Source: Dictyostelium discoideum
Taxonomy: Eukaryota
Assembly (NCBI GenBank): GCA_000004695.1
Contig: CM000153.2
Span: 4,224,001-4,288,000 of the forward strand
DNA: 64,000 nt
Reading direction: 5' to 3'
The position numbers and the translations under genes are program-made. Below, piece after piece: positions 1,898 through 58,827 of the stretch (within the stretch, counting starts at the first letter, position 1; each line of letters begins with the position of its first letter). Under the pieces are notes generated by a model. It ran no database searches. It was not told where the DNA came from and saw only the letters and a program-made list of their open reading frames with translations.

Positions 1898-3187
1898 TCT
1901 ATCAAAATACAAATATATCTGAAATATAATCAAAAAAAAAAAATAACATATAAAAATAAAAATAACAATAACATTACAGTTATAAACATATGTATGCACT
2001 TTAATTTTTTTTTAATTTTTTTTCTTTTTTAATTTATTGTTGTTTAATTTATTTCTTTTTTATTTAATTATTTGTTTTTATTTTATTTTATTTTTTAATT
2101 ATTATTATTTTTTTTTTTTTTTTTTAAAATTTTTTTTTTTTTTTTTTTTTAAATGATTGATTTCCTCCTAAGGACAAAAAAAAAAAAAAAAAAAAAAAAA
2201 TTTATTAAATATTTTTGGTGTTTTTTATATGAATAAATAAATTAAAAAAGCAAGTCGGAGAAATAATAGTAATAATTAAATAATTTTAACTTAATTTTTA
2301 AATTTTTTTTTTTTTTTTTAATTCATTAAACCATCATTTTTTTTTTTTTTTTTTTTTTTATTTTTATCAAAATACAAATTACTATTATGGATCCGACTAT
2401 TAAATAATAAAATATTTTATTTTTAGAGGTTTTTTTTTTTTTTTTTTTTTAATATTCTCATCACACACAACCACTCTCAACAACACAATACTGTTAGTGT
2501 GAGCACACTCGAGTGTTTGTTATTTTCGCTAAATGTAAATATATGTTAAAAAAAAAAAAAAAAAAATAAATAAAAAATAAAAATAAAAATAATTATAAAT
2601 AAATAAAATTAATAAGAAAAGAAAAGAAAAGAAAAAAAAAAAAAAAAAAAAAACCAATTAAAAAAAAAAAAAAATAAAATAAAATAATTAAAATTAAATT
2701 CCTTTTGTAATAATTTTATAAATATTAAAAAAATACACTATTTGACAATAATCGATTATAATAATTGTAATTAAGTTTAAATAATTTTTTTCTTTGTTTC
2801 CTTTTTCCTTTTTTTTTTTTTTTTTTTTTTTTAAGTGTTTCTTTTTTCTTTGATGCAAAAAAAAAAAAACAACAAAAAAAAACAAATATCTTTAAAGTAA
2901 ACTTTTTTTTTTTCTGTTTTCCATGTTTTGTGAAAAAAAAAAAAAAAAAAAAAAAAAAAATAAAATAAAATAGAGAAAAAAATAAATAATGTTTATTTAT
3001 AATAGATTAAATAAATAATTATAATCATATCATAATTACCATAATTATTTATTTTTTTATTTTTTTATTTTTTTATTTTTTTTTTTAAAACAAATATTTT
3101 AATATAAAAAAAAAAAAATAAAAAAAATAAAAAAAAAATTAAAAAATTAAAAAATAAAAAAAAAAAAACTCAAAAAAAAATCTTTTA

Positions 3188-7344: not shown

Positions 7345-9615
<2,271 letters not shown>

Positions 9616-10312
9616 CACAATAGAGTAGAGCTCTTAATTGATCTATTGATCTTGTGTAAATAAAAAAAAAATAAAAAATAAAAGTTTATTATTTAACTAA
9701 TTTAAATTACTAGTTTATTATTTAATATTTTGGTTAAAATAAAAAAAAAATAAAAAATAAAAAATAAAAAAATAAATCAAAAAAAAATAAGATATTAATA
9801 AAATTAAATTTTTTAATATTTATAAAATTAAATATAAATAAAAAAATAAAAAAATAAATAAAAAAATAAATAAATAAAAAAAATAAATAAATAAAAAAAA
9901 TCTTCTGATGGAACATTTAGAGGCTCCAAAAAAAAAAAAAAAAATAGAAAAGTGTTTAAAAACGAAAATTGAAAAAATTTTAAAAGTTAGGCTATTAATT
10001 TCGCAATAAAAATAAATATTCATATGATGATATCATGACTGTTATTAAAAAACAGTTCAAATTTATTATTATCCCTAATGTCATTCAATTCCAAAAAAGA
10101 AAAAAAATGTCCCTATCTCAAAAAATTTATTTTTTTTTTAATTTTTATTTTTATTTTTTTTTTTTTTAATTTATTTTAATTTTTTTTTTTTTTTTTTTAT
10201 ATTAATTAATTGGTGCACCAAAAGAAATATGTAAAGCGCATAAATTGTTAATAAATAAAAAGGGTAAAAAAAAAAAAAAAAAAAAAACCATAGTAAAAAC
10301 GTACGTTTGTTG

Positions 10313-10343
<31 letters not shown>

Positions 10344-10344
<1 letters not shown>

Positions 10345-11648
10345 TGAATACAAATAATAATTTTTCAAATGGGGAAGAAGTGTCAATCCATATTGGAACT
10401 GGTATAGATATTGCAGCAAAAGCATGGGGTCCAAAAGAGAGTTCACAAAAAATGCTTGCTTTACATGGTTGGTTGGATAATGCAAATACATTTGATTTCA
10501 TTGCTCCAATTCTCGCTGAAAAAGGTATTAGAATAATAGTATGTATATCTCCTGTGCACAATAATAAAAAAAATAAAAAAAATAAAAAAAAATAAAAAGT
10601 TATATAAAAAGTTTTTATATATAAGATATTAATTTTTTTTTTTTTTTATTTTTTTTTTTTTTTTATTTTTTTAATTAGGCAATTGATTTTATTGGACATG
10701 GATTATCACCACATAAACCAAGTTGGTGTAATTTATATTATACAGATTATATTACTCAAGTATTAGATGTTGCCGAAGCATTACAATGGAAAACCTTTTC
10801 AATAATGGGACATAGTATGGGTGCTGGTATAGCATCAATTGTTGCAGCAAGTATGCCACATTTAGTTGAACGTATCATTTGTTTAGATTTCATTGGTATA
10901 CTTTCAAAAGAACAAGATCAAATCAAAGCAATTCAATTCGCAATGCAAACTCGTACAACTATAAACAATAGAAAACCACATCTTTACAATAATAAACAAG
11001 CCATATTCGATAAATTAAAAGCAAACAATCCTTGGATTAAAGATGAAGCTGGTCAAAGATTATTAGATAGATCAATTGAATCTGTTATCTCTCCAACTAC
11101 TGGTGAGCAATGTTATAAACTTAGACATGATCCACGTTTAGTTGGTATGTTTATTATTATTATTATTATTAAATATTATCAATAATAATTTTTATTAATT
11201 TTTATTCATTTTTTTTTTTTTTTTTTTAGGACCATCAATTTTTATTATGCGTGAAGCAGAAGTTTTATTAATGTTGGATGAAATTCAATGTCCAGTTTTA
11301 TTGATTTGGGGTACGACATCATCTCAACAATTCCAAATTAAAAAGAATTGGACACAAATCATGGAAGGTAGAATGTCACATATAAAGAATTTAAAACAAT
11401 TGGTTGTACCAGGTTCTCATCATTTCCATATGGAAAATACTTCTGCATTCTCTCAAGATATTTTAGAATTTATGTTTGAAGAAAAGGATCTCTCTTTTAC
11501 ACCATCATCAACTACTCAGCAGCAACAACAACAGCAACAATCAGCTGAAAATAAAAAGGGTGATAATCATAATCAAATAGCTGAACAAGATTTATCAACT
11601 TCAAATACTTCTTCACCAATTATTTCAAAACCAAAACCCAATTTGTAA
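10344..11648 (+). CDS. Alpha/beta-hydrolase fold serine hydrolase, SERHL (serine hydrolase-like) type, about 359 aa. Exons: 10344..10538, 10679..11144, 11230..11648.
   Basis: ALHGWLDNANTFDFIAPILAEKGIRII|AIDFIGHGLS is reconstructed across intron 1 (GTATGT donor, ttaattag acceptor). Nucleophile elbow GHSMGAG. Catalytic-His region PGSHHFHMEN in exon 3. Intron 2 donor G|GTATGT is phase 1 and rejoins as G-PSIFIMREAE. All phases are consistent. Confidence 0.8.
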
Positions 11649-12867: not shown

Positions 12868-14190
12868 ATGATTGCACTATTATTATTACAAATAATATTC
12901 TTTGTAGGGTATTATGTTATGAGTATTACATTTGGACTTTTTAAAATATTCTTAACATTATTGAAATTTAAAAATTTAGCAATTTCAACATTATGTAATA
13001 GAGTATGTTTTATATATATATATATATATTAATATATATATATATATTAATATATAAAAGTATAAAAAAAAAAAAAAAAATTAACTTTTATTTTATTTTA
13101 TTTTTATATTTTAAAAAAAAAAAAAAAATAGATACCAATTGAAGATAGAAAAAAAGTTGTAATTGTTGGAGGTGGATTTTCAGGTAGTATTGTAGCACAA
13201 AAATTAGAGAATGATTATCAAGTTACATTAATTGATACAAAGGATTTCTTTGAATTTACACCAAGTATACTTAGAACCATTGTTGAACCACAACATGTTA
13301 AAAAGATTCAAATTTTACATTCACATTATTTAAAGCATACAAATGTAATTCAAAAGGAAGTATTGGGTGTACAATCTAGAGAGGTGATTTTAGATGATAG
13401 GTCAGTTGAGTTTGACTATTTAGTGATAAACTCTGGCTCAAGTTATAATTCACCATTTAAAGAATCAAGTGTTGTCTCATCAGCACGTGCAAATACATTA
13501 CGTGAAAATTATTACCACATTAGAAAGTTGAAGAGAATTTTAATCATTGGTGGTGGTATCGTTGGAGTGGAGTTGGCCGCAGAGATAGTGGACCATTTCA
13601 AAGGCAAGGAAGTGACAATCGTGCATTCACAATCGAAATTAATGAACAGGTTCCCCAAGAAGACAATACGTTACACTGAGGAATTCTTACAAAAGCGTGG
13701 TGTTAAATTGATTTATAATGAACGTGTTGTGGCTCATAGGGGTCAAACATTCATAACCGATCAGGGTAGTGAGATCATTGCTGAGCAAGCGTTCCTTTGT
13801 ACTGGTATCGCACCAAATTCAAATTTCATTAAAAACAGCTACCCCGATGCCATCTCTGAGAATGGTTACATCAAAGCTAACGACCAACTCCAGATGGCCG
13901 GCACTACATTCTATCGTAATATCTTTGTGTCTGGTGACGTCTTACATGTACGTGAAGAGAAGTTAGCCCAAACTGCTGAATGCACAGCTTCAATAGTGGT
14001 CAATAATATCAATGCAATGGAAAGTCGTTGTGAACATAAAATGCAATCTTATAAACCTTTTGCAAAACCTGTTTTAATAAGTCTTGGAAAATATTCTGCT
14101 ATCTTTGTTTATAAAGATTACTCAATAACTGGTTTCTTACCAGCTTTATTAAAACAAGCTGTTGAATTTAAAACAATGGTTAGATATTAA
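12868..14190 (+). CDS. AIF-like / FSP1 (AIFM2)-like FAD-dependent pyridine-nucleotide-disulfide oxidoreductase. Exons: 12868..13002, 13132..14190.
   Basis: Exon 2 opens with the dinucleotide-binding motif KKVVIVGGGFSGSIVAQKL...VTLIDTKDFFEFTPSILR. A second Rossmann motif is ILIIGGGIVGVELAAEI. Exon 1 (MIALLLLQIIFFVGYYVMSITFGLFKIF...) looks like a hydrophobic membrane anchor. GTATGT donor at 13003 and aaaatag acceptor at 13131, phase 0. The track's 'M' at 13363 is a TTG codon inside exon 2. Confidence 0.7.
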
Positions 14191-49892: not shown

Positions 49893-49975
49893 ATCTTTTC
49901 TTTCCTCCACCTATCTCCCCTTGTCTTTCCTCCTATCCTCCCTCCCCCCCCCTCTCACTCCCCACCCACTTTGTT
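49893..49975 (+). repeat. C/T-rich polypyrimidine tract (about 85% pyrimidine, about 50% C) immediately 3' of the stop codon
   Basis: atcttttctttcctccacctatctccccttgtctttcctcctatcctccctccccccccctctcactccccacccactttg. This stands out in a genome where intergenic DNA is otherwise about 90% A+T. Confidence 0.8.
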
Positions 49976-50169
49976 TTATTATTATTTTTTAATATTAATT
50001 TTCTATAATATATATGTATTTGTTTATTTAAACTACTTTTTTTTTTTTTTCAACACAAATCTAAAAAATAAAATGTATATCTTTTAATCTAATATAAAAA
50101 AATCTTTTTTCAATTAAGTAATTTATTTATTGGAAACTAAAATCTTACAATTATTTTTATAATAAATTA

Positions 50170-50640
50170 TGAATTAATTCGTTTTATTATTATTAACATT
50201 TCTTACTATCATTATTATCTTTATCATGGTATTCACCATTATCATCAGTTTCATTATCATCAGTTTCATTATCATCAGTTTCATTATCATCAATTTCACT
50301 ATCATCGATTTTACCATCATCAGTTTCACTGTCATCAGTTTCATTATCATATAAACGCACATTTAAGGAATTTGAAAATATTGAGAAAATTTTTACATTG
50401 TCTTAAGTTTAAGATTTTCTATTGTTGATTCTATTGGGAGAATGTGACAATCCAAAGTATCTTAAGGTAAATTATCATCAACACCATGAAATGTCAATGA
50501 AATGTTATAGTTTCCTTTTTTGAATTAGTTATTCGCATAAAGCTCACCTTTTACTTTTGGAGAATGTATAGGCAATTTTTATTTATTAATCGGATATGAA
50601 CTTTCATGAATGATTTGAAGTTTCTCTAATTCATTTTAAT
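50170..50640 (-). pseudogene. Degenerate paralogue (copy 1) of the 56420-57660 element. It carries a (TCATTATCATCAGTT)n repeat coding acidic E/T/D-rich repeats on the minus strand.
   Basis: Roughly 75-80% identity to 56.6-57.36 kb over several hundred bp (for example gaaaatattgagaaaatttttacattgtctt...tcatcaacaccatgaaatg). Minus-strand translation MKVHIRLINKNCLY... / ...GNYNISLTFHGVDDNLP*... parallels copy 2 but has multiple stops. Confidence 0.35.
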
Positions 50641-50850: not shown

Positions 50851-52055
50851 CAAATTCTTTTTTTTTTTTTTTTTTTTTTTTATAAAAATTAACACCTACT
50901 GAAAGTAAATTATATATTTAAAAAAAAAGAAAAAAAAAGAAATAAATTTTTATAAAAAAAAAAAAAAATAAAAAAAAATAACCAAATAATAAATCAATTT
51001 CTGAAAGAGATACCCATTCTAAATGGGGTTATTAATTTTTTTTTTTCTCAAATTTAATTCTTCATTTTTTTTTTTTTTAATAATCTGTAAATGGGTTTTT
51101 GTATGTTAAACTATTTTTTTTTAATATTTTTTTTAGTCTGCTATATGGTTGAATTTAACCTTAAAGAAGCACCAGATTATTTGATTTGATGGCACTTCTT
51201 TTCTTTGGTATTTAACTTAAATGTTAATTATAATTTTAATTTTTTTTTAATTTTATTGAAATATTAAAAAGTGTAAAAAATTTGAATTCAACATTTATCT
51301 TTAAAAATTGTCTCGGAATTTTACCTGATACAACACTTTTATTATCATGGCCATTTTTGTAAATGAAATTTTTTTTAATTTTTTAATTTTTTTTTTTTTT
51401 TTTGCCGAAATTGGTTTATTTTAATTAAAAGGGGTTAATTTTAGATTTCTTTTAAATTTAAAAGTAAATAAAATTCAATTAAATTACTATTTAGTATTTT
51501 TAAAATAAACTGTCATTTAAGATAGTTATAGATTTTAATAAAAAAATAACAATAAAAAAAAAAATATAAAAAAAAAATGAATTTAGAAGAGGAGCTACTT
51601 TTTTTAGAGCCACCACCAATAGCCAGTAATAATAATAATAATAGTGGCAGACAATAAAATATATAAGAGATTTGTTCCGCAACTATATTTAAAACAAAAA
51701 TTGATCCAAAAACCATTTTAAATTTAAATCAATATTTAACTCTATCCATTAAAACAATAAGTTCATCAATTGAAACAAATAATAAATTAAGTAAAGATCA
51801 AAAAAGAATTAATGAACACCAAAATAATCAAAAACTAATAAGTGATATTAATAATAATAATAATAATGACAATAAAAATAAACTCTATAGATTTTATAAA
51901 TAGTAGACATTTAAATTTATTACAATCATATTAATAATAATAATAATTATAATAAAATAAACTCTATAGATTTAATTAATAGTAGACATTTAAATTTATT
52001 ACAACCATTCCCATTGCCAACAGTGAATAATGATCAAAATAATAATAATCAAAAA

Positions 52056-53479: not shown

Positions 53480-53710
53480 TAATTTTCCACTATTAAAGAA
53501 ATTGTGTGCCTTATTATAATTATTATAATTGTTATTATTTTTTTTCTAATTTGTTACCTGCAACTTAGGTACCATCTTTTGAAAAAGTGCGGTTATGGCC
53601 TTACCTTAGGAACATTGAATCAAGATAAGTGTGCCCAAACAGGAATATCAGTAGCCCCTAAAAGAGCAGCTGATGCGAAACTAGCACCAAGTTAGTTGTT
53701 ATCTATTAAT
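53480..53710 (-). pseudogene. Profilin-II pseudogene fragment: a duplicated 5' part of proB exon 2 plus the adjoining intron 3' end
   Basis: About 80% identity to 54410-54590, including the ttaattaatagataacaac intron/exon junction. The minus-strand translation NN*LGASFASAALLGATDIPVWAHLS*FNV... versus intact proB NNLLGAGFASAALLGAADGSVWAHSAGFNV shows stops and substitutions. Confidence 0.55.
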
Positions 53711-54215
53711 TAAATAATCATTTGATTTAAAAAAAAAAAAAATAATTAAATTCTCACCCCCATTAATAAATTTTTTTTTTTTTTTTAATCTTGAATATTT
53801 AATTTCTCAATCTAATTCTTTTTTCACCAACATTTGATAAAAATAATTCACATTTATCAAACCGATTAAAAACTGATAAAAAAAAAACATATTTACCCAA
53901 AAACTAATTAAAATATAAATCAATATTTATTTCTGGAAATTAAGTTATTAAAAAAAAATCAATTAACAAAAAAAAAAAAAACAACCACACAATCAAAAAC
54001 TATAAAAAAAAAATCTTTACGATAAATCAAACTAAATATGTCAACACCTAATTAACAATCAACATGAACTTTTCAATGTTTGTGGGTTCTAGTTTTTCTT
54101 TGTTTATTTTTAGAAAAAAAAAATATATTTTATATATATATATAGAGTTACAACATTTTTTTATTATTATTTTATATATTATTTTACGTTATTTATTTTT
54201 GAAAAGAATACTAAT

Positions 54216-54708
54216 TTAACAGTTGTTGTCAATTAAATAATCGGCTAATTTTTCAGCAATGTTAGCAGCAGCACCTGGTTGTAATTTGTCATCATAGACA
54301 GCAACGATGATACAAGTTAAGGTTTTAACGCAAACAACACCACCAGCACCTAATTTACCGTAAGCAGATCTGGTGTCACTTTTGATGGCCATATATTTCT
54401 TACCAGCAACGTGGATGCCAGTTGCGAATGCAGCTCCATCCTTTTGAAAAAGTGCGGTTATTGCCTTACCTTCAGCGACATTGAATCCAGCTGAGTGTGC
54501 CCAAACACTACCGTCAGCAGCACCTAAAAGAGCAGCTGATGCGAAACCAGCACCAAGTAAGTTGTTATCTATTAATTAAATAATCATTCGATTTAAAAAA
54601 AAAAAAAAATTAATAAAGTTGAACATCACCAACAATATATTGTGTGGAAATTAAGAAAATGAGGAAAGAAAAAAATTAACACCTACCGACGTATGCTTGC
54701 CAAGTCAT
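54216..54708 (-). CDS. proB: Profilin II, 124 aa. Exons: complement(54216..54568, 54687..54708).
   Basis: Exon 1 MTWQAYV, donor G|GTAGGT, phase 1. The 118-nt intron ends ...aattaatag|. Exon 2 DNNLLGAGFASAALLGAADGSVWAHSAGFNVAEGKAITALFQKDGAAFATGIHVAGKKYMAIKSDTRSAYGKLGAGGVVCVKTLTCIIVAVYDDKLQPGAAANIAEKLADYLIDNNC* is a full-length match to the known Dictyostelium profilin II. This exon is distinctly GC-richer, with codon bias typical of a highly expressed gene. Confidence 0.9.
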
Positions 54709-54904
54709 TGTATATTATATATTTATTAAGAGTTTTGAGTGTATGAAAATGATTTGGAGAAAAAAAAAATATTAAATTTTTATACTCGCCCACCCTTAAA
54801 AAAATTTTTTTTTTTTTTTTAATTTTTTTTTTTTTAGTTTTTTTCATAATTTTGGACACCCAATTAAAAACCCACCATACTTTGGGTTTTTTTTTTTTTT
54901 TTCT

Positions 54905-54935
<31 letters not shown>

Positions 54936-55822
54936 AAAAATATATTATTTCTCAACAATCTAGATTAATCGAATTTCATTTATTTTCGTCTGCTAAATTT
55001 TTGTGCCACCATTGGGATAAAAGAAAAAAAAAAAATATATAGTTCATATTTACCAAACTGTTTGGTAGTTTAAAAACTGATAAAAAAAAATAAAATAATT
55101 ATTAAGGTTTAACATAAAAAAAAAAAAAAAAAAACATTATTTATATAATCAAATTAATAATATGAGTAACTCATTTCTACTTTTATTATTTAATATATAG
55201 TAATTTTATTAGTTATTTTATGTATTTGAAAATTCATGTATTTGTTTATTTGTCATGTGATAAATTTTTTTTTTTTTTTCTAAATTTCAAATAAAAAAAT
55301 GGTTTAGTTTTTGGTCATATGAAATTCTTTATTTGAAAAAAAAAAAAAATATCTTTATTTTTGTTTTAATTATTTTTTTTATATTTTATTTTTTTTTTTT
55401 TTTGTATTGATTGGATATTTTTGATTTTCAAATAAATTCCTTTTCTTCAAAAAAAAAAATAAAAAAAATAATTTTAAAAAAACTATATTTGCAGAAAATA
55501 TAAATTAAAATGTGAGCATGAGGTCGAGTGTTGAGTTGAATCATATATATCTCAGGAAAATTAATTCTAATTAGCCTTTTTGTTATATTAATATTAAAAT
55601 TAAAAAAATAAATTATAATTATAAAATTAACAATCATGAAAAAAAAAAGTTTATGTTCATCATTATTGATAATATCATATGTTGAACAATAAAAAGTAAC
55701 ATCACCAAATAATCTGGTTCTTCTTTATAGTTGACCCCAACCATCTTTAGGTGGCTATTAAAAATGTTTAGATAAAAATAAAAATAAAAAAATAAAAAAT
55801 TTAAAAAAAGGTAATAATATGA

Positions 55823-55860
<38 letters not shown>

Positions 55861-56319
55861 AAAAATGTAAACGTATATGTGAATTCAAAGTTGAGTCAAA
55901 TGTTGAGTAGATATATGTAACTCAAATTTTTCACCCTTTGAACTAAAATAAAATTATTAAACCAAAATTAAATATATAATAAAAATAAATACATATTAGA
56001 TATTGTTTTTTGATTTTCTTTCAAATAAAAGCGATATTGTAATAATTATATAAAAGTAATGAGAGGGAAAAAAAAAAAAAAAAATATTTTAAAAATATTT
56101 TAAAAAATTTAATTTAAAATATATAATTTTTTTTATTTTTGTTATTATTTGGATTATTATTATTAATTATACATTTGGTTGGAGATGTTGGTACTGTTAG
56201 ATTTTTTTTTTTTTTAGATATTTGGCAGTTGGTTTTGTTGTTGTATCTTTTTTTTGAGGTTGTTTAACTAATGAACTCTTTGAAGATGGTTTTAATTTAT
56301 TTGCAATTTTCTTTTGTTG

Positions 56320-56392
<73 letters not shown>

Positions 56393-56419
56393 TGTTACTG
56401 GAGATGTTGATATTAGATT

Positions 56420-56536
56420 TTATTTTTTTTTACATGATTTGGTAGTTGATTTTGTTGTTGTATCTTTTTTTGATGATGGTTTTAGTTTTTTTAATTTTTT
56501 TTGATTATCTTCTTGTGATGATTTTCTTTTGTTTGA

Positions 56537-56592
<56 letters not shown>

Positions 56593-57660
56593 ACATTTCT
56601 TCATCGGTTTCTTCTTCACTATCGTTATTATCTTTATCATCAGTTTCGCTATGATCAGTTTCACCATGATCAGTTTCACTATGATCAGTTTCACTATGAT
56701 CAGTTTCACTATGATCAGTTTCACTATGATCAGTTTCACCATGATCAGTTTCAAAATCATTTTCATCAAAAATAAAACTATTTGAATTTAATGTATTACT
56801 AAAACCATCATTATCTATATTTGAATTATTAAAACCATCATCATTATTATTACAACCACTTCTTTCCAATTGATTGTATTGATCCAAAATATCAAAATTA
56901 AGTTGGTGTATTTCTTTTCAATATCTTTAATAATACTCAAACAAACATTTGGGTTTGAATCACCACAAGATATATCAGAAAAAGGTAATGGATCATATAC
57001 GCGATGGTTAGAGGCATTTGAAAATATTGAGACAATTTTTACATTGTCTTTGGTGTAAGACTTTCTATTGTTAATTCGGTCGAGAGAATGTGTCAATCTA
57101 AGTATCTAAATGGTAACTTATCATCAACACCATGAAATGCCATTGGAATGTTATAATTTCCACATTTGAATTGGTTATTCACACAAAATTCAATATATTC
57201 GTCAACTGTTAAGGTTGGATCCTCTAGTTTTGGAACATGTGGAGGTGAATTTTGATTAATTAATTGAATATGATATTTCATGTCTGATTTGATTGTATAA
57301 AATTTGGATGTAGATTCTGGTTGTGGGAAATTGTGGTAAGGAATGGAAGAGCACAAATAAAGGAGATATTGTGACCATTTTCAAAATAACCATGAAATTT
57401 GACCAATTTTGTTGGATCACAAATGGATCTTGATGAATTCAATTGACTTCTAATCAATATTGTATTTTCTTCATTGTACTCTTTGATATTTGGATCAACT
57501 CTTTCAAGGGAAGCGCGATTATTTGACCAATAATTTAATGAGAATTGCCACCACTATAAAAACAAGTTCTACCTGATTGATTCCAAATCCTTTCAAAAAA
57601 ATCTCTATCAATTTTATTGGCTTTTTTGTGACCTGTTGTACCACACCTCTATTGTAAAAA
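56420..57660 (-). pseudogene. Multiply frame-disrupted gene remnant (copy 2, the more intact one) with a C-terminal (ETDHS)n acidic repeat. Unknown family.
   Basis: Minus-strand pieces lie in three different frames separated by stops: RCGTTGHKKANKIDRDFFERIWNQSGRTCFYSGGNSH* / LNYWSNNRASLERVDPNIKEY...FHGYFENGHNISF...* / MKYHIQLINQNSPPHVPKLEDPTLTVDEYIEFCVNNQFKCGNYNIPMAFHGVDDKLPFRYLD* / ...NASNHRVYDPLPFSDISCGDSNPNVC... / DENDFETDHGETDHS(ETDHS)5.... No consistent GT..AG introns reconcile them. Possible upstream exon fragments with GTAAGT and GTATGT donors lie at 57840-58340. Confidence 0.35.
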
Positions 57661-57915
57661 CATAATTTATAATATTTTAAATCATAACTAAAAAATAAAT
57701 GAATTTTTTGAAAAAAAAAAAAAAATTAATAAATTAATAATTTTAGTATATATTAATTATTGTTATTACAACAACAACTATTATTTAGTGTTATTAAAAT
57801 AAATAAAATAAAAATATATCAATTTTAATATTTTTACATACCAAGATTCAAGTAAATTTGTTTTTAAAACTTCATCTCTTGTTACAATTCTATTTAATTT
57901 AAATTTTACTTTTTT

Positions 57916-57959
<44 letters not shown>

Positions 57960-58827
57960 AGCAAGTAATCTATATTACATTGATTTAATTTATAAATTTG
58001 ATTTTATAAATAAGAAATAACTTACAAAATTTCAATAAAATATCAATTCCTCTAGAAATGATTCTTTTTTCATAAAATTCTAAAATTAATTTTTTAAAAT
58101 CATTGGAACTTTTATTTGATAGGTATTCTTTTTTTTTTTCAATATTCTTAAAATATAATGCTTTACCACTTCGATCATTATCAGAAATTGATACTAAATT
58201 TTTTGTAATATTATTTTTTAAACATCTTCTTAAAAGTTCAAAAGGTTTATCATATTCAAATCGTGGATATATTTGAATATTTGTGTAAATAAATAGTTTT
58301 TGGTTAATAGAATTTTTATTTGAAAAAAAAAAAAAATAAAAAGAAATTTTTTTTTTTTATTTTTTTTTTATTTTTGTTTAAGAGTAGTTAATTTTTTTTT
58401 ATTTTTTTTATTTTAAATTCTTAAAATATATTTTTATCTATTTTTTTTTGATTAGATATTTTGATCTTCAAATAAAACACAAAAAAAAAATATTTATTAA
58501 ATAATGGATATTAAAAAAAGGAACTTTGGGGAAAAAGTTGAGTTAATTTGGAAAGATATATGATTAGATTTTTATTTAACAAAATATGAAGTTTTATTCA
58601 ATTTCTTTATTAAATATTTAAGCGATATTTTTTTTTTTTTTTTTTGATATTTTGGATATTTTGAAAAATTAAAATATTCAAATGTTATCATATTTCCCTT
58701 AAAAAAAAAAGGATTTTTAAAAAATGTGGGTTGTTTATTATTTGAAAATAATAATATCAAAAGATATTTTAAATTATTTTTTTTATTTTTTTTTTTTTTT
58801 TTCTGGAACCCAAAATCAATTTAAAAC

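Follow-up and report, generated by a model that had tools for sequence, protein, structure and literature searches.

Two paralogous gene remnants beside the profilin II gene of Dictyostelium discoideum: probable independent decay of a gene with phage endonuclease-like domains

In the current analysis we have characterised two disrupted, coding-like loci on the minus strand of a 64,000-nucleotide (nt) stretch of the Dictyostelium discoideum genome (assembly GCA_000004695.1, contig CM000153.2, positions 4,224,001 to 4,288,000), which is referred to as the window. Copy 2 lies at ~57,645-56,420 and copy 1 at ~50,620-50,193. With a probability of roughly 85% both loci are pseudogenes that have lost their function and belong to a small local family confined to the D. 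discoideum complex, and their present state would be the outcome of ordinary independent decay. The frame breaks that follow the common peptide GVDD[KN]LP are, as judged from the alignment of the copies, two independent 1-nt deletions, neither a shared lesion nor a splice signal. A sequence-only reading of this region had taken the two interruptions to lie at the same relative place, and had concluded either that the duplication followed the inactivation or that a conserved unconventional splice is marked there.

Paralogy of the two copies

The copies are related over their coding-like part and over their tails. Positions 57,012-57,187 of copy 2 align by blastn with 50,366-50,541 of copy 1 at 84.7% identity over 177 nt (E 6e-50), far beyond chance, and the tails are 74% identical by the same method. 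Arrays of period 15 have been detected by Tandem Repeats Finder (TRF) in both tails, encoding ETDHS in copy 2 and ETDDN in copy 1 (50,237-50,350, 7.6 copies). Because of the blastn identity, the matching tails and these arrays, copy 1 and copy 2 are paralogous and their repeat tails are real.

The minus-strand open pieces of copy 2 fall successively in frames 0, 2, 1, 0 and 2. Pieces 1 and 2 read ...CGTTGHKKANKIDRDFFERIWNQSGRTCFYSGG and then SLNYWSNNRASLERVD...FIQSNQT* (asterisks mark stops), piece 3 reads MKYHIQLINQ...FHGVDDKLPFRYLD*, and pieces 4 and 5 read LRLTHSLDRINNRKSYTKDNV...KKYTN and then LNFDILDQ...(ETDHS)n...polyN...KKK*. The corresponding pieces of copy 1 are MKVHIRLINK..., ...FHGVDDNLP*, ...SPNRINNRKS*T*DNVKIFSIFSN... 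and (ETDDN)n. The segments and acidic repeats described by the sequence-only reading are therefore encoded at both loci, and its identification of paralogous, inactivated gene remnants agrees with the level of identity and with the disrupted frames of both copies. The limits that it gave, 56,420-57,660, enclose only part of the relic, as coding-like sequence runs on to ~58,272.

Organisation and lesions of copy 2

The copy 2 relic carries at least 5 small deletions and a 5' truncation. Four repairs (+1, +25, +1 and +1 nt) convert it into a 417-codon open reading frame (ORF) at 57,645-56,423, which has 0 stops, as against 17 and 94 in the two alternative frames. The guanine plus cytosine (GC) content of the relic is 27-32%, as against 9-15% in its flanks. 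The parts and the lesions, the latter numbered as frameshifts (FS), are listed from 5' to 3' of the gene; L004 and the Logan contigs are comparator sequences described in a later section.

58,027-58,272, minus strand: possible N-terminal exon, IYPRFEYDKPFELLRRCLKNN...GIDILLKF followed by GTAAGT; an open stretch of 123 codons with 18% GC and no ATG.
57,664-57,852, minus strand: AT-rich spacer of 10% GC, where the Logan contigs carry a Cys-rich, coding-like stretch of at least 205 nt; probably the scar of a deletion or what is left of an intron.
56,420-57,645, minus strand: main relic of copy 2, reading CGTTGHKK...SCKKK* when repaired, with its stop at 56,422-56,420.
57,643-57,644, minus strand: lesion 0, the loss of 7 nt that the Logan contigs retain, GAGGTG[AAGGTAG]TGGTAC; their restoration brings CFYNRGEGSGTTGHKK into one frame.
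57,425-57,615, minus strand: module A, a predicted phage-type endonuclease-VII/HNH-like domain, KIDRDFFERIWNQSGRTCFYSGG and (Q)FSLNYWSNNRASLERVDPNIKEYNEENTILIRSQLNSSRS, split by FS1.
57,547-57,548, minus strand: FS1, a 1-nt deletion, GGTGG-CAATT against GGTGGATATTT in L004, where GGYLSLNYW is read in a single frame.
57,296-57,299, minus strand: FS2, a 25-nt (19+6) deletion; L004 reads NQNLHLNFVQPIKKNWRKIKSNMKYHIRV in a single frame.
57,001-57,209, minus strand: module B, a predicted second domain of the same family, TVDEYIEFCVNNQFKCGNYNIPMAFHGVDDKLPFRY and (F)RLTHSLDRINNRKSYTKDNVKIVSIFSNASNHR, split by FS3.
57,099-57,101, minus strand: FS3, one T lost in ACTT[T]AG, where copy 1 keeps TTT; this is the break noticed by the sequence-only reading.
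56,893-56,905, minus strand: FS4, a putative 1-nt deletion between ...EKKYTN and LNFDILDQYNQLERSG, placed by the overlap of two frames alone.
56,635-56,753, minus strand: acidic (ETDHS/G)n repeat with a 15-nt period, 7.9 copies and 95% matches (TRF).
56,423-56,634, minus strand: C-terminal low-complexity tail with an acidic stretch, poly-Asn (56,541-56,591) and a Lys-rich basic end.
56,181-56,375, minus strand: decayed tandem copy of the 3' tail (poly-Asn and Lys-rich basic part), 81% identical to 56,400-56,591 and carrying stops.

Since FS2 is a deletion relative to the single frame of L004, the MKYHIQ segment is internal to the ancestral ORF and does not represent a gene start. The basic end of the tail reads KKSNKRK...KKLKKLKPSSKK...KKK; its resemblance to a nuclear localisation signal suggests that the ancestral protein may have been nuclear.

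The possible N-terminal exon lies inside the segment that is missing from the sister loci L001-L003. L004 has a weak colinear relic of it at 13,004-13,060 (E 0.015), and the putative exon has a weak match to DUF7602 (E 0.1). A model with GT..AG introns at 58,025-57,912 and 57,844-57,648 has been considered and partly withdrawn, because the Logan contigs show that the putative 3' splice site at ~57,650 is ancestral coding sequence. The supposed site, TTTTTACAATAG followed by AG, encodes QCFYNRG there and stands next to a deletion breakpoint; only the ORF at 58,027-58,272 is left of this model as a possible exon.

The frame breaks after GVDD[KN]LP

The stops that end the two open pieces differ, with TAA immediately after LP in copy 1 and TGA six codons further in copy 2. 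In copy 2 one T is gone at ~57,100, and addition of T in GATACTT[T]AGATTG restores the frame and gives FHGVDDKLPFRYFRLTHSLDRINN. In copy 1 one A is gone at ~50,466, and addition of A in TTACC[A]TTAAG restores the frame and gives FHGVDDNLPLRYFGLSHSPNRINN. The aligned break sites are CCATTTAGATAC-TTAG in copy 2 and CC-TTAAGATACTTTGG in copy 1, and a gapped alignment followed from the FHGVDD frame to the DRINN frame contains two offsetting 1-nt indels, 13 nt apart. Once repaired, both copies read ...LP[FL]RYF[RG]L[TS]HS[LP][DN]RINN.

At the lesion of each copy the other copy retains the intact state, and the ancestor was therefore probably in frame at this place (LPFRYFRLTHSLDRINN). The two stops differ because they are the out-of-frame outcomes of two different 1-nt deletions, so that the lesion formerly read as common to both copies is not a common one.

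Copy 2 in sister genomes and in independent read assemblies

Syntenic loci of sister genomes have been retrieved by way of their profilin orthologues (comparator sequences carry L numbers). L004 is from D. cf. discoideum (GCA_054859205.1), and L007 and L008 are Logan-assembled contigs of two different Sequence Read Archive (SRA) runs, SRR24091724 and SRR24091729. The sister genomes labelled 'D. discoideum' have a DNA identity to the window of ~88-90%.

L001-L003, L005 and L006 lack the segment with copy 2 (~55,870-58,294); the species without it include D. firmibasis and D. dimigraforme. The tail of copy 1 is syntenic in L001, L002 and L004. In L004, positions 8,590-9,051 are a syntenic orthologous fragment of window 57,553-57,113 with 81% identity. 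This fragment is intact at FS1 and FS2 and has damage of its own, comprising 3 in-frame stops and 2 different 1-nt gaps.

L007 and L008 differ from the window by 5 substitutions and 3 gaps in ~800 nt. They carry FS1-FS4 exactly as in the window, the 25-nt deletion included, and differ further by one inserted T, one deleted nucleotide and a nonsense codon (TAT to TAA). They keep the AAGGTAG (7 nt) that is lost from the window, and upstream of 57,663 they run on into 205 nt of Cys-rich coding-like sequence, ...YDMVECNVKKAPDCLNRCPLFQCSTYDNIKDTDQIKLCCFACKSSG.... As independent SRA contigs share the four lesions and add more, the lesions of copy 2 are real and the locus is drifting. A search of a large protein database with the module profile has identified as sole relative a 62-residue ORF, with one substitution, on two Logan contigs.

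The state of the two loci is that of pseudogenes in both frame and constraint. The frame of copy 2 is broken by five small deletions and the 5' truncation, and that of copy 1 by stops, frameshifts and two larger deletions. Relaxed constraint is evident in the nonsense codon and three indels (including the 7 nt) that separate L007 and L008 from the window, in the three stops of L004 and in the deletion of the locus from L001-L003.

Timing of the inactivation of copy 2

AT-biased neutral substitutions have been simulated on the repaired 417-codon ORF. At divergences of 1, 3 and 8% the ORF stayed free of stops with a probability of 0.42, 0.07 and 0.002, respectively. The 0 nonsense codons in the 417 repaired codons fit only ~3% or less of neutral divergence, as against ~15% between the copies. 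Both copies have syntenic relics in L004, and the duplication therefore predates the split of the L004 lineage. From the lack of a stop at such a divergence between copies it follows that selection still acted on copy 2 well after the duplication and that its inactivation is recent. The independent lesions and the intact codons are both contrary to the earlier proposal that inactivation preceded the duplication.

On this evidence copy 2 is an unusually fresh pseudogene, with deletions only and no nonsense codon. The two loci resemble ordinary duplicated (unprocessed) pseudogenes of birth-and-death families, in which local copies decay independently by indels, stops and deletions and vary in presence, but the freshness and the deletion-only damage of copy 2 are unusual among these.

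Domain family of the ancestral protein

The two modules would belong to an endonuclease-like family of phages and bacteria that is recognised by the PHROG profiles and not by Pfam. Module B matches phrog_3322 (6.6e-7 / 1.2e-6). Module A has PHROG matches at 4e-7 to 2e-4, including phrog_4592 (3.9e-7) and phrog_3118 (2.5e-5), and matches phrog_3322 at 1e-4 to 3e-3. Both modules match phrog_3322 (labelled 'endonuclease'), phrog_3118 and phrog_3377 (HNH endonuclease), phrog_1035 (endonuclease VII) and the T4 Srd/Srh-like families. Reversed and shuffled controls against PHROGs gave nothing under an E-value of 0.2.

An intact relative has been identified in a metagenomic, bacterial-type contig (L009, MDSV01146837.1). 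Its 208-residue ORF (2,464-3,090) ends in ...FDLDRDFIKNLYANMPERCPILGIKL...SPSLDRINSKKGYTKDNVKIISNLANRIK, shares 71% identity with the core of module B (BLASTP 8e-8) and is colinear with IDRDFFERIW..C..G...SLERVD of module A. Its matches to phrog_3322, endonuclease VII and HNH have E-values of 8e-31, 2.5e-15 and 2e-10, respectively. Further relatives are found on 15 IMG/VR viral contigs (L010-L024), all 15 of which carry S[LIV]DR[IK][DN]..KGYT[KE][DE]N; the core of module B is 50-63% identical to these viral ORFs. The family with the pattern S-L-D-R-I-D..KGYTKDN is widespread and, although labelled 'endonuclease', uncharacterised, and it has no solved relative detectable by sequence.

A family hidden Markov model (HMM) has been built from 16 phage and bacterial relatives and used to scan 7,030 six-frame fragments of the window and L001-L008. 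Its top match is the C-terminal half of module B (E 5e-10), which scores 39.7 bits alone and 48.1 bits after repair of the module (E 4e-13). Module A goes from 5.3 and 8.5 bits for its separate halves to 17.9 bits when repaired (E 9e-4, model positions 26-92), and the repaired module of copy 1 scores 20.9 bits (E 1e-4). The rise of the scores on joining the halves validates the frameshift repairs.

The hallmark motif S-[LIV]-D-R-[IK]-[DN]-x-K-K-G-Y-T-[KE]-[DE]-N-[VI]...N..K is present in module B as SLDRINNRKSYTKDNVKIVSIFSN. In copy 1 it has decayed to SPNRINNRKS*T*DNVKIFSIFSN, and in module A it has diverged to SLERVDPNIKEYNEENTILIRSQLN. The upstream helix with C-x3-G is colinear with the core, IDRDFFERIWNQSGRTCFYSGG and VDEYIEFCVNNQFKCGNYNIP lying at model positions 26-48. 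The sequence-only reading had seen in the peptide upstream of MKYHIQ a P-loop-like GTTG and a vague likeness to sulphotransferases. This peptide gives no Pfam or NCBIfam signal, and GTTGHKK fits neither GxxxxGK[ST] nor PKxGTTW; the adjoining KIDRDFFERIW...C..G aligns to the N-terminal helix-C..G of the phage domain, in module A.

The phrog_3322/1035/3118/3377 relatives (L009, L010-L024) share with the Dictyostelium modules a colinear layout of a helix [FL]DLdrdF.., C-x3-G, a variable loop and, after the loop, S-L-D-R-I-[DN], K-x-Y-T-K-D-N-V and ..S..N. They differ in that each phage or bacterial protein has one domain whereas the Dictyostelium gene has two in tandem, and in that the latter adds acidic repeats, poly-Asn and a basic tail of eukaryotic style, lies in a nuclear genome and is dead. 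Module A (SLERVD, KEY, EEN) is far more diverged from the phage relatives. Modules A and B match each other by BLASTP at an E-value of 0.035 only, and the case for an internal duplication comes from the families that both of them match and not from their similarity to each other.

The resemblance to the His-Me finger of HNH proteins and T4 endonuclease VII consists of remote PHROG profile similarity and of Asn residues at the expected spacing. The modules have no CxxC...CxxC zinc pairs, unlike those enzymes, and where the catalytic His (D-H, or first His of H-N-H) would stand, at the end of beta-1, both modules carry Arg (D-R, E-R), as do all the relatives retrieved. As the family as a whole departs from the catalytic-His rule, nuclease activity is uncertain. 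The T4 Srd/Srh-like families (phrog_1400, phrog_4592) are matched by the modules and by the L009 ORF over the S-L-D-R...N core; the scores are weak, and the labels of anti-sigma factor and sigma decoy are not transferable to the modules.

Pfam models of HNH type (HNH, HNH_3, Endonuclease_7 and others) match neither the modules at E<=10 nor the L009 ORF at E<=1. Neither the frame-corrected protein nor the modules nor the intact relative had a meaningful match in Pfam, NCBIfam or the PDB sequences, and the whole conceptual protein had none at E<=0.01 in a large protein database. A HMMER search with an 85-residue piece of module A against 1.84 billion representatives returned four weak matches, which were rejected as repeat-protein artefacts of Listeria/Bacteroides type, in which the repeats sum small matches. 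A pattern scan of bacterial and archaeal genome contigs gave no confirmed relatives, and a literature search on HNH-type pseudogenes of Dictyostelium yielded nothing relevant. The annotated proteins of the Dictyostelium genomes in the database include no intact relative of the gene; the gene would accordingly be lineage-restricted and is possibly of horizontal origin.

Copy 1 and the profilin II neighbourhood

The window is very AT-rich (GC ~16-30%), and a repeat search of the region was dominated by low-complexity AT repeats, so BLAST and pairwise alignment have been used instead. Genes of the window include those for profilin (54,219-54,707, minus strand), a G-alpha subunit, a GH9 cellulase and an omega-type glutathione S-transferase. 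The nearest database proteins to the window profilin are those of the D. discoideum complex (90-91% identity), followed by D. firmibasis (82%), from which the window is judged to be nuclear DNA of a member of this complex. Neither a protein fully identical to the window profilin nor the exact 62-residue ORF occurs in the collections searched, and species labels within the complex may be loose. Copy 1 and the further relics are as follows.

50,193-50,620, minus strand: copy 1, consisting of module B and the acidic-repeat tail only, with a 1-nt deletion at 50,465/50,466 and further frame breaks.
51,145-51,183, plus strand: relic of the Cys-rich N-terminal part, MVEFNLKEAPDYL, belonging to a third, inverted copy of the family (tblastn E 0.12).
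55,638-55,694, minus strand: second half of the Cys-rich relic, FYCSTYDIINNDEHKLFFF, which the inversion of the profilin segment has parted from the first.

The erosion of copy 1 includes two TAA codons in RKS*T*DNV and deletions of 28 nt and ~250 nt relative to copy 2. In L001 both Cys-rich halves are colinear and contiguous (8,546-8,584 and 8,994-9,053); since they are separated in the window, one inversion breakpoint lies inside the Cys-rich relic. In L004 the Cys-rich relics stand directly upstream of the copy 1 tail.

The profilin II segment with its upstream region, window 54,123-55,868, is inverted relative to L001 8,821-10,605, and also relative to L002 and L003. The window has extra DNA at both inversion junctions, namely 51.2-54.1 kb and the copy 2 segment at 55.87-58.29 kb. 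L004 has the window-like orientation but two profilin genes (7,417-7,823 and 10,001-10,499). At 53,598-53,752 a fragment of 155 nt matches, reversed and with 79% identity, a portion of the L001 and L002 profilin gene; situated ~0.5 kb away from the intact gene, it probably represents an incomplete duplicate of profilin or a pseudogene.

A tract of ~85 nt that is rich in purines and in G, gtgggtggggagtgagaggggggggagggaggataggaggaaagacaaggggagataggtggaggaaag, has been observed immediately 3' of copy 1, at 49,905-49,990 (minus-strand reading). It is highly unusual for DNA of ~20% GC, and on the plus strand it falls within an 80-codon ORF ending in ...LSSLPPPLTPHPL.

Alternative explanations

The copies might be insertions of a selfish mobile element, such as a gene of the homing-endonuclease type or a piece of a transposon or virus, and their endonuclease perhaps drove the rearrangements around profilin. 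The domain family is typical of mobile or accessory genes of phages, the presence of the copy 2 segment varies among close relatives, and at least 3 relics in both orientations surround the inverted segment, near which profilin fragments are duplicated. This origin is nevertheless quite unlikely. All the copies seen lie within one 8-kb neighbourhood that is syntenic in several genomes, and no copy is found elsewhere in the annotated proteomes. Terminal repeats or target-site duplications have not been noted, although no systematic search was made for them. The gene has features of host type (poly-Asn, AT-rich codons, possibly introns), and the Arg-for-His core leaves a nuclease function in doubt.

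It is very unlikely that the gene acquired its frameshift after GVDD[KN]LP before the duplication, with both copies inheriting the lesion, even though both need the same net -1 shift from the FHGVDD to the DRINN frame within 13 nt. The two offsetting 1-nt indels would then require three events (a shared frameshift and compensating indels), as against two for an in-frame ancestor with independent deletions. The 261 open codons downstream of the site, within the 417 that lack nonsense, are incompatible with drift over a divergence of ~15%, and two other frameshifts of copy 2 are demonstrably lineage-specific.

A live copy 2, read by programmed ribosomal frameshifting or through unconventional micro-introns at conserved positions, would account for the uniform -1 direction of the shifts and for the nonsense-free codons; this we regard as highly improbable. 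The shifts are simple gaps of 1, 7 and 25 nt relative to in-frame copies, at positions that differ between the copies, and sister copies carry in-frame stops. The same facts speak against the splice signal suggested earlier. A near-identical version exists in the Logan contigs with a nonsense codon and extra indels, and the L004 orthologue has its three stops. No start codon is identifiable in copy 2, its 5' Cys-rich part is deleted, and a bias towards deletions would give the uniform direction. That the breaks are sequencing or assembly errors in an intact copy 2 is scarcely credible, for although a single base is missing at three of the lesions and one lies within a short T run, the independently assembled L007 and L008 show identical FS1-FS4 with the 25-nt deletion, and neighbouring genes of the window have long intact ORFs.

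Several points weigh against the preferred explanation of two independently decayed pseudogenes with phage-type domains. At the FS3 site there is no outgroup, and the independence of the two lesions follows from parsimony (2 versus 3 events) together with the argument from constraint. FS4 and the start codon have no comparator copy, FS4 being predicted from the frames, and the weak matches of the putative exon at 58,027-58,272 leave its belonging to the gene uncertain. The Logan contigs may represent alleles or, alternatively, another paralogue at a different genomic place. The family assignment follows profile similarity, Pfam having no model and the PDB no sequence relative, and module A is a weak match (E ~1e-3 to 4e-7 by profile; E 0.035 against module B). 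The locus may also retain residual expression or a non-coding role.

Proposed history and significance

Under the preferred explanation of independent decay, the ancestral protein would have comprised a Cys-rich N-terminal part, two tandem endonuclease-VII/HNH-like domains of His-Me-finger type with the hallmark C..G ... S-[LIV]-D-R-[IK]-[DN]-x-K-G-Y-T-K-D-N ... N, an acidic repeat of five residues, poly-Asn and a basic tail. Such a layout suggests a nuclear protein that may have bound or cut nucleic acids. The duplication of the gene beside profilin II would be older than the separation of the sister lineages sampled. Inactivation of copy 1 would have come early, and its erosion is heavy. Copy 2 would have stayed under purifying selection much longer and then been lost recently through deletions of 7, 1, 25, 1 and 1 nt and the loss of its 5' Cys-rich part. 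Today the locus would have no function and be subject to drift and deletion at lineage-specific rates.

Candidates for horizontal gene transfer are a known category in D. discoideum. A broader scenario, tentative and on the whole rather unlikely, is that a phage or bacterial gene was acquired horizontally and adapted to its host by tandem duplication of the domain and by addition of acidic repeats, poly-Asn and a tail resembling a nuclear localisation signal, that it reached at least 3 copies around profilin II, and that it is now being lost lineage by lineage. In this scenario the copies, or DNA cutting by their product, may have promoted the inversion and duplication of the profilin segment that distinguish the sister genomes.

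The main value of the analysis is a correction, in that an apparent shared lesion or splice signal resolves into two independent single-base deletions and no new mechanism is needed. The relics would represent a eukaryotic, tandem-domain and now dead member of a phage and bacterial family that is without a Pfam model, and thus a candidate for horizontal acquisition followed by loss in a bacterivorous amoeba. Copy 2 would provide a dated snapshot of very recent, deletion-only pseudogenisation, and the profilin II neighbourhood is flagged as structurally unstable among the genomes of the D. discoideum complex.

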